A stretch of 64,000 nucleotides of DNA from Candidatus Aalborgiella aggregata (GCA_016705065.1 JADIYY010000002.1:149545-213544), one strand, 5' to 3'. Shown: positions 14,452 through 60,504, numbered from the stretch's first letter. Notes: generated from the sequence alone by a model not told the origin. Made by a program: numbers and translations.

Positions 14452-15203
<752 letters not shown>

Positions 15204-15229
15204 ACTTGATGTGCATACAAAGCAATAGC

Positions 15230-23261: not shown

Positions 23262-24246
<985 letters not shown>

Positions 24247-32499: not shown

Positions 32500-33807
32500 T
32501 TAGCCTAATAGCGCGGCTTTTTTCCATGTTTGCGCAGCGATGTCCAACTCGCCACGCTGCTCTGCCAATTCAGCCAATGCGATCCATGCTTGGTGCTGCA
32601 AAGACTGGTTCTCAGAACTTGTTAAGCGCGGCGCAGCCAATTGCAATAGTTGTTGCGCCTTGCCCCATAATTTGCGTGCTTTGCAAGCCATGCCAGCCAA
32701 ATACTGCAAACGCGCATCGCGTGGGTTGTTGATTTGTGCTTGCTCTATTTTGGCAAACCAGTTGTCGTCCATCGCCGTCAAAGTGGCTTGCATGGTTTGC
32801 ACCAAAATCACTTGGCTTGTAGCAGTCAACTCCGGTGCACCAGCCACCATTTTGTCCCAAGCTGGCAGCAACCAGGTGCGGATTTGCTGTGCATCACCAT
32901 CCAATTTGGCCAAGCAACTGGCAGCATGAATGGCGATATCGGCTTGCTTGCGTTCATCCGCATCCAAACCGCGCCAGACGGTTTGCAACTGCGCCACATC
33001 ATGCGCATCGCTTAACATGCGTGTAACCAAACTGCGCAACAGACTTTCCGATGCGGTGTTTGAAAAAGCACGGTGTTTGGCCAGCAAACGCGTGGTCTCT
33101 AAAGCGACACTCAAGGAGTGCGCATTGAAATGATCGAGTTGCGAAGCTTTCAGTTTCAAACGCAAAGCCGCTGTGCGACGTGCAGCACCCTGCGATAAAA
33201 CATTGAGCCAACGCAAAGCGCCTGCCGCATCGCGGTCGTCTAACGCCCATTGAGCTGCCAACATTTGCGTGCCTTCGCGGGTTTCTTGCGAGGCTTTGGG
33301 GTTGTTGTGTTCCAAGGCCAAATTCAAATGCTCATCCCGCACCACTTTGTCTTGCAACGCATGCGCACTCTGTGCCACCATCACATGCGCCAACGCACGC
33401 AACTGGGGCGCATTTTCAAGTCGGCTGTCTGAGTTCTTAGATCCAAGTACATCGCCCATGGCTTTGTCCATGTCCAAAGCTGCCAATGCTGCTTTGCGGG
33501 CACGCAAATAACGACCCGCCATGAAATGCGATTGCGCATTGAACAAATGCGCATTCAAAGCGCGCTCTTTTTGCAAACTGCGCCATTGTTTGGCTTGCTT
33601 GGGTAAAGCAAACAACACCGATAAAGCACGCAGAGCAAAGTACAGCAGCACAAAGCCAGTTACCAATAGGGCAATCGCAAAGTTCAAGGACACATCGACC
33701 CGATGGGGCGGCCAGAAAATCGTCACCGTTGCATCGTTGTTACCTGCAAACAAGGCGCTTAACACGGCAATCGAAAAAATTGCTAAAAACCAAAGTGCGG
33801 TACGCAT
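32500..33807 (-). CDS. hemY: HemY-like protein (heme biosynthesis-associated, TPR-containing membrane protein)
   Basis: N-terminal double TM segment (MRTALWFLAIFSIAVLSALF...). It is the last gene of the hemC-D-X-Y cluster. Length is 435 aa. Confidence 0.8.
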   Translation of the reverse strand: MRTALWFLAIFSIAVLSALFAGNNDATVTIFWPPHRVDVSLNFAIALLVTGFVLLYFALRALSVLFALPKQAKQWRSLQKERALNAHLFNAQSHFMAGRYLRARKAALAALDMDKAMGDVLGSKNSDSRLENAPQLRALAHVMVAQSAHALQDKVVRDEHLNLALEHNNPKASQETREGTQMLAAQWALDDRDAAGALRWLNVLSQGAARRTAALRLKLKASQLDHFNAHSLSVALETTRLLAKHRAFSNTASESLLRSLVTRMLSDAHDVAQLQTVWRGLDADERKQADIAIHAASCLAKLDGDAQQIRTWLLPAWDKMVAGAPELTATSQVILVQTMQATLTAMDDNWFAKIEQAQINNPRDARLQYLAGMACKARKLWGKAQQLLQLAAPRLTSSENQSLQHQAWIALAELAEQRGELDIAAQTWKKAALLG

Positions 33808-34989
33808 TTAACGTCCTGCCGCCGCCACAGTCAATGCGGCCAAAGATTCTTCCAAACCAGGAATCGATAGGTTCGCCAACTGTGCTTGTGATTGCTGCAA
33901 CAAACCCAATGCTTGCTTTGCAGCGGGCGCACTTGCGTCTGTATACTTGCGCAAATCGGCGTTGACCATTGCCAAGTCCGATTTGGCACTGCCGAACTGG
34001 CGGCTCAACACACCCATGCGTGCATTGAGCACCCGCAGCTTCATGTTTTCGCGCAAGAAGAAGGTTTGCTCAGGTGACTGCAATACTGCATCCGGGTGCG
34101 CGATTTGGCTCACACGCACCAGCTTGCCCGATTCTGCACGCACTGCCAACCAAATTTGTTGCAGCCACGCTGAGACTGTGTTTTGCAGGTCATTCGCGAC
34201 ACTGGCCGTCTTGGTTGGCTTGATGTCCTTACCAGCATTGCTGCCAGTTGCTTGACCACTCTCAGACTTTGCAAGTGGTGATGCGGCTGTGTCGGCTTGT
34301 TTGGATCCCACCGCATTGCTGGCTGGTAGCGTATCGATCAATTGCGTTAATTCGTCTAACTTGCCCATCAAATTCGGTACGTCAGTCACTGTGGCGGCTT
34401 TGATGCGCTGTGCATCGTTGCTCAAGGCGCGTTTTACTGTGTTCAGGCGTGGTTGGGCTGATTTGGCTAAACGCACATCGGCCGATTTCAGCGCAGCCAA
34501 AAGCGGCTCCACACTGCCGGTTAACTGAGCTTGCTGTTGTGCCAGTCGCAAGGCCGATTCAATGTCCACCACCAAATTTTCATCACGCGAACGCGACAGG
34601 CTTTGCATCAACTCGTCCAACTGGCTGCGTTGCAAAGCCACTTCACTCAATTTGGTTTCGTTCAATGACGATCTGGCCACTGCTTCACGCGCCAGTTCTT
34701 GCGCGTTTTTGGCCAAGCTGCGCGCTTCGATGCTAATGGTACTGGCATCGGCACTTTGGCGCGCCAAATGTTCTTGAATGCCATTCAATTTACGCCACAA
34801 ATAGGCTGTGGCCAATATGGATATTGCCAATGCCGCTATGGTTGCGATAGCAAGTTTGGGATATTGACTGAATACATTGCGCCCTGCAAACTGATTGGCA
34901 GACCCCATCGTTGCAGCCTTATCGGTGACTGCATCTTGCTCAGGAGATGGATTGTCTGAATGTGCGGGAATTTGGGCGGCTTCGGTCAT
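33808..34989 (-). CDS. hemX: HemX-like protein (annotated uroporphyrinogen-III C-methyltransferase family)
   Basis: The start I chose (MTEAAQ..., 34989) makes an ATGA overlap with the hemD stop. Has a single TM segment followed by a long coiled region. The ORF-track start at 35118 would overlap hemD by 130 nt. Confidence 0.75.
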   Translation of the reverse strand: MTEAAQIPAHSDNPSPEQDAVTDKAATMGSANQFAGRNVFSQYPKLAIATIAALAISILATAYLWRKLNGIQEHLARQSADASTISIEARSLAKNAQELAREAVARSSLNETKLSEVALQRSQLDELMQSLSRSRDENLVVDIESALRLAQQQAQLTGSVEPLLAALKSADVRLAKSAQPRLNTVKRALSNDAQRIKAATVTDVPNLMGKLDELTQLIDTLPASNAVGSKQADTAASPLAKSESGQATGSNAGKDIKPTKTASVANDLQNTVSAWLQQIWLAVRAESGKLVRVSQIAHPDAVLQSPEQTFFLRENMKLRVLNARMGVLSRQFGSAKSDLAMVNADLRKYTDASAPAAKQALGLLQQSQAQLANLSIPGLEESLAALTVAAAGR

Positions 34990-35824
34990 ACCAGTGATTC
35001 TATAGAAGTCACCACATCGGAAAGCAGCGGGCGTGACTCGCAAACAACACCAAAACCCACTCGTCTGGCCGCTTCTGCAATGCGCGGGTGTGTCGCAATG
35101 GCTTTGGATTTTGACCAATCGATTTGTTTCGCTGCGTTGTGCAAATTGTCAATCGCCTCAGAACTGCTGAACAACCAAACCGACCCATCGCGGCTGGCTT
35201 CTGCAATCCATGCCATTTGCTCAACAGTAAACACAGGCGCACGTCGCTCGTAACTCACCACCGTGTCAACTTGCACGCCTGCACTTGTGAGCTGGTCTGC
35301 CAACCAAGGACGGCCATTCATTAGGGTTTCATTCTCGACAGAGCTTTGTTGTGTGGTGCCGCGAACGATGAGCACCCGATCGCCCGCTTTGACTTGGCCG
35401 CGCACACGTTCCCACAAAGCTTCAGAATCAAATTGCGCAGCATCATTCGCTGGCGCATCAATCAAATGGGTAGCTATGCCTGCTGCCAACAATGCTTTGG
35501 CGGTACCAGGTCCAGTAGCCCAATAGCGCGGTGTTTCAATTGACTGATCGCTTAATGCTATATTATTGATAGCACTGTAGGCAATATTTACGCCGGCTAC
35601 AGCCTGATTTTTCATATAAAAATGGCGCACAGCGTTGCTGCTGACAAACATGATGGCAGCGTAGTGTGACGCATTGTCTCTGCAACAGCATTTGCGACCA
35701 CTTGAGAGTCTTTTGCAGCAGCAATTTCAATCAATGGCAAGGCGATGGCATCTAAACCTTTGGCTTGCAACTGTGCCACCCAAGTTTGCGCTTCTGCCAG
35801 CGGTCGGGTGACGATGACTTTCAT
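34986..35824 (-). pseudogene. hemD: uroporphyrinogen-III synthase HemD, frame interrupted (N-terminal ORF 35612-35824, C-terminal ORF 34986-35651) and carrying a repeat insertion
   Basis: The N-terminal ORF begins MKVIVTRPLAEAQTW. The C-terminal ORF contains the conserved MFVSSNAVRHF motif. The frames differ by +2/-1 at the cacac (plus-strand gtgtg) site 35664-35668. Confidence 0.8.
35556..35620 (+). repeat. Dispersed hairpin repeat, copy D (in frame inside hemD)
   Basis: tgctatattattgatagcactgtaggcaatatttacgccggctacagcctgatttttcatataaa. It encodes FYMKNQAVAGVNIAYSAINNIALSD. Confidence 0.88.
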
Positions 35825-35851: not shown

Positions 35852-36829
35852 CTATTCAACTTGCTTGACGGTTTTGCGCGCCCCACGTGCAATCAGCATG
35901 TCTGCAACTTGTGCGCCCATCAGAGCGGCAGCGTCCAATGTGTTGGGTGTATGGCTGGCATCGGCTGTCACCAAACCTTGAATTGGCTTGGTCGCAGGTA
36001 TTTCTTCGGTTGCACCCCAAGCCGCTTGCAATTGCAGTGCTGCGCCTTGCCAAACAGCATGCGCCGCCAATGGCATGGAGCAACTGCCACCTAAAGCGCG
36101 ACTGACGGCGCGCTCTGCGCTCACAGCCATCCAAGTCGGTTGGTGTGCCAAAGGTTCCAAGGCTGCCATTAAATCGACGCGGTTCGCTTTGATTTCAATG
36201 CCCAGTGCGCCCTGCCCTGCGGCAGGTAGCATTTGGTTGGTTTCAAACACCGCTTTGATGCGCGACGCCAAACCCAAACGTTTCAGCCCAGCTGCCGCCA
36301 AAATCATGGCGTCAAACTGTCCTTCGTCGAGCTTGCGCAAGCGGGTGTCTAAATTGCCTCTGAGCGGCACAATGTTGATATCAGGTCGCAAATTTTTCAA
36401 CAACACCACGCGCCGCAAGCTGGATGTGCCCACTGTTGCACCCTGTGGCAAAGCAGCCAAGTTGGCAAAGTGGTTCGACACAAACGCATCGCGTGGGTCT
36501 TCGCGTTCCATCACGCACGCCAGCGCAAAACCTTCTGGCAAATCCATGGGTACGTCTTTGAGTGAATGCACCGCTATGTCGGCACTGCCGTCCATCAGCG
36601 CGTTTTCCAACTCTTTCACAAACAAACCCTTACCACCGACTTTGCTCAGACTGCGGTCTAAGATTTGGTCACCCAATGTCGTCATGCCCAACAGTTTGAC
36701 GCTATGGCCTCTGGCTTCTAGCAGCGCTTTGACATGTTCGGCTTGCCACATCGCCAAACGGCTTTCACGGGTGGCAATGGTGATATGCGATGGGGTAACT
36801 GGGGTGCTATGCATGTTGGTAGTGTTCAA
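35852..36829 (-). CDS. hemC: hydroxymethylbilane synthase (porphobilinogen deaminase)
   Basis: Motifs [27 protein letters not shown] and the C-terminal GGCSMP cofactor cysteine. Confidence 0.96.
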
Positions 36830-39824: not shown

Positions 39825-41045
39825 GTGAACACCAATACCTATCATTTCGATGTCGTCATCATTGGCGCGGGCGCAGCAGGCTTGTTTTGTGCGGGCGTGG
39901 CAGGGCAATTGGGTCAGAAAGTTTTAGTCCTGGACCACAGCGACAAAGTGGCCGAAAAAATTCGCATTTCTGGCGGTGGCCGTGCCAATTTCACCAACAA
40001 AGATGTATCACCTGCTAACTTCTTAAGCAATAACCCGCATTTTTGCCGCAGCGCCTTAAGCCGTTACACAGCGCGTGACTTCATTGCGCTGATGTACAAG
40101 CACAACATTGCTCACCACGAGAAGCACAAAGGGCAATTGTTTTGCGACCATTCTGCGCAAGATTTGATTGACATGCTGTTGAAGGAGTGTGAAGTGGGTG
40201 GTGTCACACGCTGGCAGCCCTGCAAGATTAAACACATCGAATTCGGCGGGGACTATCAAATACAGACAAATACCGGCTGTATCCATACCCCCAGACTGGT
40301 GGTGGCAACCGGTGGTTTGTCCATACCCAAAATTGGTGCCACGGATTTTGGCTACAAATTGGCCCAGCAATTCGGTTTGCGTGTGATCGAGACACGTCCA
40401 GGTTTGGTGCCTTTGACCTTTGACAGCGCAGATTGGGCGCCTTTTGTTGATTTGGCAGGTTTATCGCTGCCGGTGCTGATTGAAACGGGCGAGAAAAAAT
40501 CCAAAATCAGTTTCAATGAAGATTTGCTCTTCACGCACCGTGGTTTGAGCGGCCCCGCCATTTTACAAATATCCAGCTATTGGCGCGAAAAGACGACAAT
40601 TAAGATCAATTTGGTGCCAAATGCTGATATTTCAGCATTTTTAGCAAATATTAAAATCACTTCGCGCAAACTACTGGTCAACGATTTGTCAACTATCATG
40701 CCAGCTCGTTTGGCAGAAGCCTGGGTAAAAACCGACCCTGCATTGCAGCGCCCAGCGTGCGATGTGCCTGATAAAGCACTGGCACAGCTGGCCAATCGAC
40801 TGACCAATTGGGAAATCACCCCCAGCGGCACCGAAGGCTACAAAAAAGCCGAAGTCACCTTGGGCGGCATCGACACCCGCGATGTGTCCTCGCAAACCAT
40901 GGAATCCAAACAGCCGGGTTTGTACTTTATTGGCGAGGTGCTGGACGTAACCGGCTGGCTGGGTGGCTACAACTTTCAGTGGGCATGGGCCAGTGCTTTT
41001 GCCTGCGCCCAAGCTATGGCACAAGCGCCGAAAAAGCAGGTATAA
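39825..41045 (+). CDS. NAD(P)/FAD-dependent oxidoreductase, HI0933/YhiN/BaiN family
   Basis: Motifs [17 protein letters not shown] and [11 protein letters not shown] place the start at GTG 39825, just after the ppc stop, rather than at the overlapping ATG 39738. Confidence 0.85.
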
Positions 41046-58977: not shown

Positions 58978-60504
58978 TTGAACATCAACTTTGACAACAG
59001 TTACGCACGTGATTTGACGGGCATGTATGCGGATTGGAAATTGACGGCAGCACCGCAACCACAATTGGTTTGGTTGAATGAATCTTTGGCTGTATCTCTA
59101 GGGCTTCACATTGCCGATCTGCATTCGACTGCTGGGCTGGCCATGTTGTCGGCCAGCCAGGCACCAGCAGGGGCACAACCCATTGCGCAAGCCTATGCGG
59201 GGCATCAATTCGGCCACTTTTCACCGCAACTGGGTGATGGGCGCGCACTCTTATTGGGTGAAGTGATTGATACGCATGGACAGCGTCAAGACATTGCATT
59301 CAAAGGCTCCGGCCGCACACCGTTTTCACGCGGTGGCGATGGCAAAGCCACACTCAGCTCGGTGTTGCGCGAAGTATTGGTCAGCGAATGCATGCATGCT
59401 TTGGGTGTGCCCAGCACACGCGCGTTGGCAGCCGTGGCCACGGGTGAACACATTCGGCGAGAAGGCATGCAGCCTGCAGGCGTGTTGACACGCGTAGCCG
59501 CCAGCCATTTGCGTGTGGGCACGTTTGAATTTTTTGCCGCCCGTGGTGATAACGATGCATTGCGCCGTTTGGTTGATTACGCCATCGCGCGCCATTACCC
59601 CATTGAAGACGAGCAAACCACGCCTGTAGCAAACAAAGCCCTCTATCTGTTAGAGCAAGTCATCAACAAACAAGCCAAGCTCATCGCGCAGTGGATGGGT
59701 TTTGGGTTCATCCACGGTGTGATGAACACCGACAACATGAGCATCAGTGGCGAAACCATCGACTACGGCCCCTGCGCCTTCATGGAAGCCTACAACCCGC
59801 AAACCGTGTTCAGCTCCATCGACGCCCAAGGGCGCTATGCCTACGCGAATCAACCCGCCATTGCCAAATGGAACCTCAGTCGATTTGCATCGGCATTGTT
59901 ACCGCTCATCCATGAAGATGATGACCAAGCTTCCACGCTGGCCTTGGATGCGTTAAGCGAGTTTGATGCAAGCTATGCCAATGCCAGTTTGGCTGTTTGG
60001 CGTTCCAAACTAGGCTTGCAAACAACGAATGCCGCAGACCAACATACCAATGATGACCATCAACTCGCGCTTGATTTTTTACAACTGCTGCAAGACCAAA
60101 GCATTGACTTCACCCAAGGCTGGCGATGTTTGGTCGATGTTTTAGTGGCTGATATTGAATCTGAAACTGCACAACCCAAATCAAACAGTTTCGCAACTTT
60201 GTTTTCAAATACCGAAAACGCCAACAACTGGTTCGCCCTTTGGCAGCAACGTTTGCAACAACATACAGTGGCTCGCCATGAACAGCTTGCCATCATGCAA
60301 CGCGCCAACCCCATTTACATTGCCCGCAACCACTTGGTTGAAGAGGCTCTCTACAATGCCACCACGCACAACGATTGGACAGCGTTCAAGCAATTGCTGG
60401 CAGCTATTCAACAGCCATCTGAAATTGGTGAACACGACATCAAACTGGCCAGTCCAGCACCTTTAGAGGTCACCGCTTTCTACAAAACGTTTTGCGGGAC
60501 TTGA
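58978..60504 (+). CDS. selO: protein adenylyltransferase SelO (YdiU family)
   Basis: Motifs YAGHQFGHFSPQLGDGRALLLGE and HGVMNTDNMSISGETIDYGP. TTG start. Confidence 0.92.
   Translation: MNINFDNSYARDLTGMYADWKLTAAPQPQLVWLNESLAVSLGLHIADLHSTAGLAMLSASQAPAGAQPIAQAYAGHQFGHFSPQLGDGRALLLGEVIDTHGQRQDIAFKGSGRTPFSRGGDGKATLSSVLREVLVSECMHALGVPSTRALAAVATGEHIRREGMQPAGVLTRVAASHLRVGTFEFFAARGDNDALRRLVDYAIARHYPIEDEQTTPVANKALYLLEQVINKQAKLIAQWMGFGFIHGVMNTDNMSISGETIDYGPCAFMEAYNPQTVFSSIDAQGRYAYANQPAIAKWNLSRFASALLPLIHEDDDQASTLALDALSEFDASYANASLAVWRSKLGLQTTNAADQHTNDDHQLALDFLQLLQDQSIDFTQGWRCLVDVLVADIESETAQPKSNSFATLFSNTENANNWFALWQQRLQQHTVARHEQLAIMQRANPIYIARNHLVEEALYNATTHNDWTAFKQLLAAIQQPSEIGEHDIKLASPAPLEVTAFYKTFCGT

Follow-up and report, generated by a model that had tools for sequence, protein, structure and literature searches.

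An old in-frame copy of a dispersed ~70-nt repeat in hemD of Candidatus Aalborgiella, and a hemD frame break that is probably an assembly artefact

Introduction

Short repeats that are scattered through bacterial genomes and read in frame where they fall within genes are the closest described counterparts of the element reported here, a ~70-nt repeat carried by hemD, the gene for uroporphyrinogen-III synthase, in Candidatus Aalborgiella aggregata. The locus was analyzed within a 64,000-nt stretch of assembly GCA_016705065.1 (JADIYY010000002.1:149545-213544), hereafter the window; the host genome as a whole (G000) comprises 2.76 Mb in nine contigs. The uptake signal sequences (USS) of Haemophilus and the DNA uptake sequences (DUS) of Neisseria measure 10 to 30 nt, occur in thousands of copies, are tolerated within genes in certain frames, and are maintained by a force that acts at the level of DNA, not of protein. 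The Rickettsia palindromic elements (RPEs; Ogata et al. 2000, as summarized in PMC10969869) are, in that summary, short dispersed repeats with hairpin potential that lie in frame in housekeeping genes, spanning ~100 to 150 nt and including 44 intragenic copies in R. conorii. Small nonautonomous repeats of the MITE (miniature inverted-repeat transposable element) and REP (repetitive extragenic palindrome) types, such as ERIC and BOX, are sometimes fused in frame with open reading frames (ORFs) (PMC10969869, PMC2229807).

The repeat in hemD belongs to a family with no earlier description, one whose behavior is like that of the RPEs. As in the elements summarized in PMC10969869, its copies may form hairpins, many of them lie in frame in unrelated housekeeping genes that are not destroyed and in which the peptide would fall at positions compatible with the fold, and the copies are old and common to several species. 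Unlike the RPEs of that summary, the element is ~70 nt long, has ~140 candidate intragenic copies against 44, and inhabits a free-living betaproteobacterial genus of wastewater and freshwater with a 2.7-Mb genome, whereas the RPE host is an obligate intracellular alphaproteobacterium. Further differences are its use of two reading frames, one per orientation, and its CTAG, which gives a stop whichever way it is read and has been mutated in intragenic copies. No sequence relationship with RPEs was seen or is to be expected; the likeness is one of mode of existence, not of family membership. Elements of the MITE and REP type (PMC10969869, PMC2229807) resemble it in being small and at times in frame within ORFs, but neither terminal inverted repeats nor target-site duplications were identified in this case, and the intragenic share of ~30% is far above that usual for REP or ERIC. 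A literature search for the repeat sequence and for betaproteobacterial elements like the RPEs found nothing, and no Rfam 15 match at the gathering score was obtained anywhere in the window.

Results

An Old In-Frame Repeat Copy in hemD

Comparison across relatives establishes that hemD holds an old in-frame copy of this dispersed repeat throughout the genus. In a genome search by nhmmer, using a repeat profile built from the copies in the window, the hemD copy was matched at 35551-35624 with an E value of 7e-18, in agreement with the in-frame repeat described in the initial annotation; it ranks 65th among the 462 genomic copies and is 82% identical to the consensus. The family CTAG is replaced by GTAG, which gives TAC (Tyr) and not TAG, and the hemD copy has stayed open because the family CTAG became CTAC or CTAT. 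The repeat lies at the same place in hemD in all 18 orthologues from the genus (DNA-level E values of 1e-8 to 1e-15) and in G023 of sister genus g6 (E = 6.5e-8), and the insert is carried by more than 50 intact relatives of 281 aa. In a few genus members and in genera g6, g7, and g3, 11 residues of the insert have been lost, and the loop is ~16 to 24 residues shorter in HemD from three further genera of the family and from other families. Because all genus orthologues and G023 match the repeat while the distant HemDs are without the insert, the insertion predates the genus, and the earlier description of hemD as invaded by the repeat does not hold if a recent event is meant. That description had also considered that orthologues might share the residues and lack the DNA repeat; the orthologues match the repeat as DNA, and their genomes hold hundreds of copies. 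We share its view that the in-frame repeat is real and of more interest than the interruption of the hemD frame discussed below.

It is very unlikely that the repeat-like residues are native to HemD, with the resemblance coincidental or the family itself derived from hemD. Part of the segment (PLAPVFIAHSATK) also occurs in g6, g7, and g3, which are more distant genera, and is thus old, and neither a target-site duplication nor an empty site was demonstrated for hemD. Against a native origin, the loop is much shorter in the three other genera of the family, in other families, and in solved structures; the match spans the whole 74-nt model, features of noncoding type included; the family occupies hundreds of unrelated sites in exactly those lineages that bear the segment; and a 69-nt in-frame copy of the same family is polymorphic for presence and absence in another gene. 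The comparisons show that a copy of this dispersed, weakly palindromic repeat inserted into hemD, in frame and in antisense orientation, ahead of the diversification of the genus; it sits between the helix after the FVSSNAV motif and the strand leading into the GPGT motif. The enzyme appears to tolerate its ~25 extra residues much as ~140 other ORFs of the genome appear to tolerate theirs.

The Repeat Family across the Genome and the Genus

The 462 nhmmer hits in the 2.76-Mb genome define a family whose consensus, aATGCTATATATTTAATAGCAnnCTAGGCAATAAATACGCCGGCTAnAGGCCAATTTTTCATATA, is ~70 nt long and includes a 7-bp hairpin (TTGCTAT N7 ATAGCAA) together with short GC stems; folding z-scores of -1.7 to -3.0 are modestly better than those of shuffled sequence. 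Of the near-full copies, which number 455, 142 are embedded in open frames that span 150 codons or more and extend 40 codons or more to either side of the copy; this figure is an upper bound because some of the long ORFs are spurious. Nearly all intragenic copies use two frames, one per orientation: those antisense to their gene read KYIENQPVSGVNIAYSAINNIA, the hemD type, and those in sense orientation read the other. Both frames meet a stop at the CTAG of the consensus, and intragenic copies change this CTAG to CAG, or to TAC or TAT on the other strand. Variants observed within genes comprise antisense ...CAGCCTGATT and ATATTTAC, which yield NQAV...VN, and CTCAG for CTAG in sense orientation. 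Identity to the consensus averages 70 to 71% for intragenic copies, compared with 79% for intergenic ones.

Between G002, a sister-species metagenome-assembled genome (MAG), and this genome, 52 of 58 copies occupy the same sites. One presence/absence difference was recorded among the 58: a 69-nt (23-codon) in-frame copy in a flavoprotein gene of G002 (G002:C1:105436-105505) is absent at window 40237-40297 (G000:C2:189781-189841). No target-site duplication or empty site was recovered from the 58 sites compared, the flanks of the single polymorphic site being too diverged to show a duplication. Copies shared by the two genomes are 88.4% identical, versus 92.7% for their mostly coding flanks. 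The taxonomic range was determined with a sequence-only covariance model in 19 genomes of the genus, in sister genera, and in 20 other genera of the order. Each of the 19 genus genomes returned more than 117 hits, G023 returned 21, and G020, from another sister genus, returned three, whereas none was found by this model in the 20 other genera of the order.

Placement of the Insert in HemD

Alignment of orthologues, together with an AlphaFold model of an intact relative (P0001, 93% identical; pLDDT 74) used in place of the broken gene, located the 22 to 25 inserted amino acids noted previously at residues 74-98, in a loop from helix to strand. In the model, the insert is a segment with pLDDT below 50 between the helix at 65-72 and the strand at 102-105; the rest superposes on 4ES6 and 3RE1 (Foldseek match to 4ES6, E = 2.5e-15, TM 0.64/0.71). 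The protein compares with HemD as described (PF02602; structures 4ES6, 3RE1, and 1JR2) in that both pieces of the gene match HEM4, the gene order is hemC-hemD-hemX-hemY, and the two-domain fold is modeled for the intact relative. It differs in its ~25 extra residues, extending from the helix after FVSSNAV to the strand before GPGT, and in the frame that is broken in this assembly. From the topology of the flavodoxin-like domain, the insert probably forms a loop at the surface, on the face of the domain that points away from the interdomain catalytic cleft. Weighing against this assignment, the insert is modeled at low confidence, so that its surface position follows from topology and not from a confident structure.

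Synonymous-Site Pattern in the hemD Copy

At the protein level, the core of the insert (residues 76-92) has a mean column identity of 0.68, compared with 0.43 to 0.62 in the neighboring linkers and 0.81 in the rest of the protein. At the codon level, several positions are nearly frozen across 19 orthologues, namely GCC GGC (A79, G80), GCT (A87), AAT (N75), ATT (I83), and AAA (K89), each at 94 to 100%, while the four-fold sites of the FVSSNAV and WATGPGT blocks on either side reach only 37 to 63%. Of the seven qualifying columns within the element, six have a value of 0.94 or more; elsewhere 27 of 157 columns do so (Fisher p = 2.7e-4). The frozen positions correspond to the motif GCCGGC and to GCTAT/ATAGC, the arms of the hairpin, whereas the loop between the arms varies and other synonymous sites are saturated. 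Tentatively, and with some doubt, the hemD copy may be held at the nucleotide level, either through a DNA- or RNA-level function (protein-binding, uptake-signal-like, or structural) or through ongoing gene conversion among the ~460 copies. A DNA-level force of the kind that maintains USS and DUS would be consistent with the invariance of these synonymous sites; nothing here connects the repeat with DNA uptake. The constraint does not generalize to the family, because the copies shared by G000 and G002 are slightly less identical than their flanks.

A second cluster of near-invariant synonymous sites was observed genus-wide at hemD codons 260-278 (window ~34995-35050), 20 to 60 nt upstream of the hemX start. 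This cluster probably reflects the translation-initiation region of hemX.

The hemC-hemD-hemX-hemY Operon and the Position of the Frame Break

HemD is required for all heme and siroheme synthesis. In this assembly its gene is read in two frames, and the locus comprises the following features, in window coordinates.

35852 to 36829, minus strand: hemC, porphobilinogen deaminase, an intact ORF of 325 aa (Pfam PF01379, E = 9e-86, and PF03900).
35684 to 35824, minus strand: 5' part of hemD in the frame of its ATG, native residues 1-47 (MKVIV...VVANAV), ending at the lesion; 47 of 48 residues equal those of intact relative P0123.
35680 to 35683, minus strand: break in the hemD frame, where CAGTAGC (7 nt, flanked by CAG on both sides) is missing relative to all same-species alleles in DNA alignments.
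35612 to 35679, minus strand: out-of-frame tail of the ATG frame (ETMRHTTLPSCLSAATLCAIFI, then a stop), overprinting the conserved YAAIMFVSSNAVRHF block, as seen from its translation and from relatives.
34986 to 35682, minus strand: 3' part of hemD in a second frame (RDNASHYAAIMFVSSNAV ... SIESLV, then a stop), equal to residues ~51-281 of the 281-aa protein of relatives; Pfam HEM4, E = 1.8e-19, and 98.2% identical to P0133.
35551 to 35624, plus strand: copy of the ~70-nt dispersed repeat family, antisense to hemD and read in frame as ...YMKNQAVAGVNIAYSAINNIALS...; nhmmer match to HMM positions 7-80.
33808 to 34989, minus strand: hemX, 393 aa, identified as an ORF with Pfam support, its ATG overlapping the hemD stop; relatives have the same 393-aa gene and the same overlap.
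34792 to 34856, minus strand: weak, eroded repeat match, sense to hemX, over a transmembrane helix (LAIATIAALAISILATAYL); nhmmer E = 3e-4.
32500 to 33807, minus strand: hemY, intact, 435 aa (PF07219, E = 9e-17).

Translation from the hemD ATG at 35824 yields an ORF of 70 aa that stops at 35612, and the remaining protein is encoded in another frame ending at 34986. The 5' piece covers HEM4 positions 2-36 (E = 0.005) and the 3' piece positions 41-223, and since the profile is split between them in this way the two are halves of one gene, as had been proposed. The 3' frame scores 70.3 bits against the PF02602 gathering cut-off of 27.5 (67.5 bits in the whole-genome search), and the PF02602 profile search of the entire 2.76-Mb genome, a check recommended in the initial annotation, revealed no second HEM4 gene. 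The hemC, hemX, and hemY genes are open and match their Pfam families, and the TGA of hemD (34988-34986) overlaps the ATG of hemX (34989-34987) as ATGA; both points bear out what was first reported for this operon. Outside it, both this genome and its relatives have intact hemE and hemH. The operon is best explained as one ordinary hemC-hemD-hemX-hemY unit in which hemD would be functional in the organism.

The hemX match noted in the list (E = 3e-4 here) reaches 5e-8 in genus orthologues, and the transmembrane helix beneath it is itself ancestral, being present in HemX of all relatives. Either the element overprinted the helix or the match is an effect of composition, and the helix may be an example of a protein segment created by the repeat.

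The frame break is not where it was initially placed, at the join cgt cac AC tac (35664-35668) with an extra AC in a CACAC context. The same string is present in close relatives, where it is in frame and reads RDNASHYAAIMF, and in the alignment of the nearest genomes it continues as ...RDNASHYAAIMFVSS. The true lesion lies 12 to 19 nt further 5' on the coding strand. There, GCTGTTG is followed directly by CAGAGAC in this genome while relatives have GCTGTTGCAGTAGCCAGAGAC, the CAGTAGC being absent here. An extra AC is therefore the wrong mechanism, although the net loss of 7 nt is equivalent in frame to the 1-nt loss that had been offered as an alternative to a 2-nt gain.

Allelic variation surrounds the lesion. 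The linker reads TTGCAGAGAC in this assembly, TTGCAGTAGCCAGAGAC in a long allele, and GCAAATGCGAGAGAC in a short one. The 90%-identity protein cluster of hemD has 61 members, and each full-length member listed is 281 aa long and contains ...AVAVARDNASHY.... Seven independent short-read metagenome contigs from wastewater and other sources (L054-L060) are 97.5 to 97.7% identical to this hemD over its full length and encode an intact 281-aa HemD, the 7 nt being the sole length difference in the whole gene. A close relative, L053, carries a natural in-frame allele that is 12 nt shorter at the same spot (VVANARDNASHY), and more distant relatives also have a linker shorter by four residues, so the break falls in a linker (residues ~45-52) that is polymorphic for in-frame indels. 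The assembly falls in length between two real alleles, being 7 nt below the long allele and 5 nt above the short. Two 221-aa members of the cluster (P0124 and P0130) looked like independent copies of the lesion but were rejected, one being cut by a contig end and the other by a 10-N scaffold gap. In a look-up among 15 billion proteins, no other assembly had the exact hemD fragments of 221 aa and 70 aa.

Origin of the Frame Break

From these comparisons, the hemD frame break is probably an assembly artefact that is absent from the cells. The 7-nt shortfall would have arisen during the construction or polishing of this assembly, which is of metagenome style and contains errors, with a mixture of alleles as the probable source. 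The consensus error suggested in the initial annotation is in this respect supported indirectly, by the seven intact same-species alleles, the length-variable linker, other artefacts in the assembly, and the intact heme pathway, even though its proposed position and mechanism were not. An artefact is also favored by the presence of a single HEM4 gene, by the dN/dS of hemD (0.14 to 0.40) with no further lesion, and by the ATGA overlap with hemX that has been kept. The assembly resembles a metagenome bin, with contig GC ranging from 0.48 to 0.68 and three junk tracts of G/C homopolymer. Two of these in the window, at ~14452-15205 (~750 nt) and 23262-24246 (~985 nt), replace spacers of 27 nt and 139 nt in G002 and are regarded as assembly artefacts because the sister genome has only that much sequence between the same genes. 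Comparison of 400 kb of G002 with this genome further revealed 1-nt frame breaks in G000, all outside the window, in guaA (GMP synthase; G000:C5 ~11518), a Bug-type solute-binding protein (G000:C2 ~458433), and an OmpA-like protein (G000:C2 ~258171). The 43 multi-frame hits in this comparison were rejected as a measure of the G000 error rate, most of them being faults of G002 or spurious ORFs; ~4 to 5 are real G000 breaks. G002 itself is very error-prone, with ~45 frame breaks in 326 genes. In a separate observation, the frame of a SelO/YdiU-like gene (window 58978-60463) differs from that of G002 after residue 402, and from the look of the C terminus this genome is intact and G002 broken.

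Several points weigh against an artefact. The loss of 7 nt is clean, falls between direct repeats of CAG, and looks like genuine replication slippage; the other frame errors found in the assembly are all 1-nt indels; and hemD also has one lesion each in G002 and in G013, the nearest two species representatives. In G002 (L031, G002:C1 3208-3330), a 13-nt insertion and a 1-nt deletion lead to an in-frame TGA directly after the repeat, and in G013 (L004, G013:C55 ~1545-1616) TAC has become TAA within the repeat. Three lesions in one gene exceed the expectation for random error, unless two indel-prone loops and the repeat are hot spots for error, and the coincidence is not fully explained. Since both sister lesions fall at the repeat or in a length-variable loop, they are plausibly assembly or polishing errors as well; TTAGG is a common variant of the G013 lesion position in other copies of the family. 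A further, weaker reading takes these distinct lesions, one in each of three sister species, to be real and hemD to be undergoing recurrent loss in the clade.

For this genome taken singly, we think it possible but unlikely that the 7-bp deletion is real, produced by slippage between the CAG triplets in the sequenced population, with hemD a very recent pseudogene. The cells would then rely on porphyrins or heme from neighbors in the wastewater community, or on a poorly active split enzyme. Beyond the direct repeats, the size of the deletion, and the lesions in G002 and G013, such a loss is favored by the lack of any second hemD that could mask an error-free copy. It is opposed by the retention of the 7 nt in all other assemblies of the species, by the error-prone state of G002, by the broken guaA of this same assembly, and by the integrity of hemC, hemE, hemH, hemX, and hemY. 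Further decay is not evident either, as hemD has a dN/dS of 0.14 to 0.40 against relatives and no second lesion.

A break that is real yet bypassed would require a programmed -1 (or +2) ribosomal frameshift, or reinitiation at the ATG at 35651 with assembly of the fragments. The two frames overlap by ~70 nt, the ATG at 35651 is in frame (MFVSS...), and the rest of the operon looks functional, all of which would accommodate such a bypass. Recoding was nevertheless rejected, as there is no slippery site at the lesion and relatives have no frame change at all: no X XXY YYZ heptamer is present at GCTGTTGCAGAGACAATG, the required shift point, a later shift would forfeit the conserved YAAIMFVSSNAV block, and the lesion is shared by no relative. 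Reinitiation fares no better, with no Shine-Dalgarno-like sequence ahead of the ATG at 35651 and with the first ~50 residues holding the invariant T6-R7-P8 and the opening strands of the fold. We consider a bypass of either kind extremely improbable.

Discussion

With an assembly artefact as its probable cause, the hemD frameshift likely matters only as a warning that apparent pseudogenes of this assembly (hemD, guaA, and comEC) should not be taken for biology. The repeat is of wider consequence. To our knowledge, the colonization of housekeeping genes in frame by a short repeat has so far been a textbook peculiarity of Rickettsia, and this free-living betaproteobacterial genus would provide a second and larger system. 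HemD, an essential enzyme, has carried a 25-residue repeat-derived peptide since before the genus diversified, and is one of ~140 candidate cases per genome. The family opens the questions of how elements of this kind select permissive loops or persist in them, and of whether new protein segments arise from the elements; the synonymous-site pattern suggests that the elements may also be selected as DNA.

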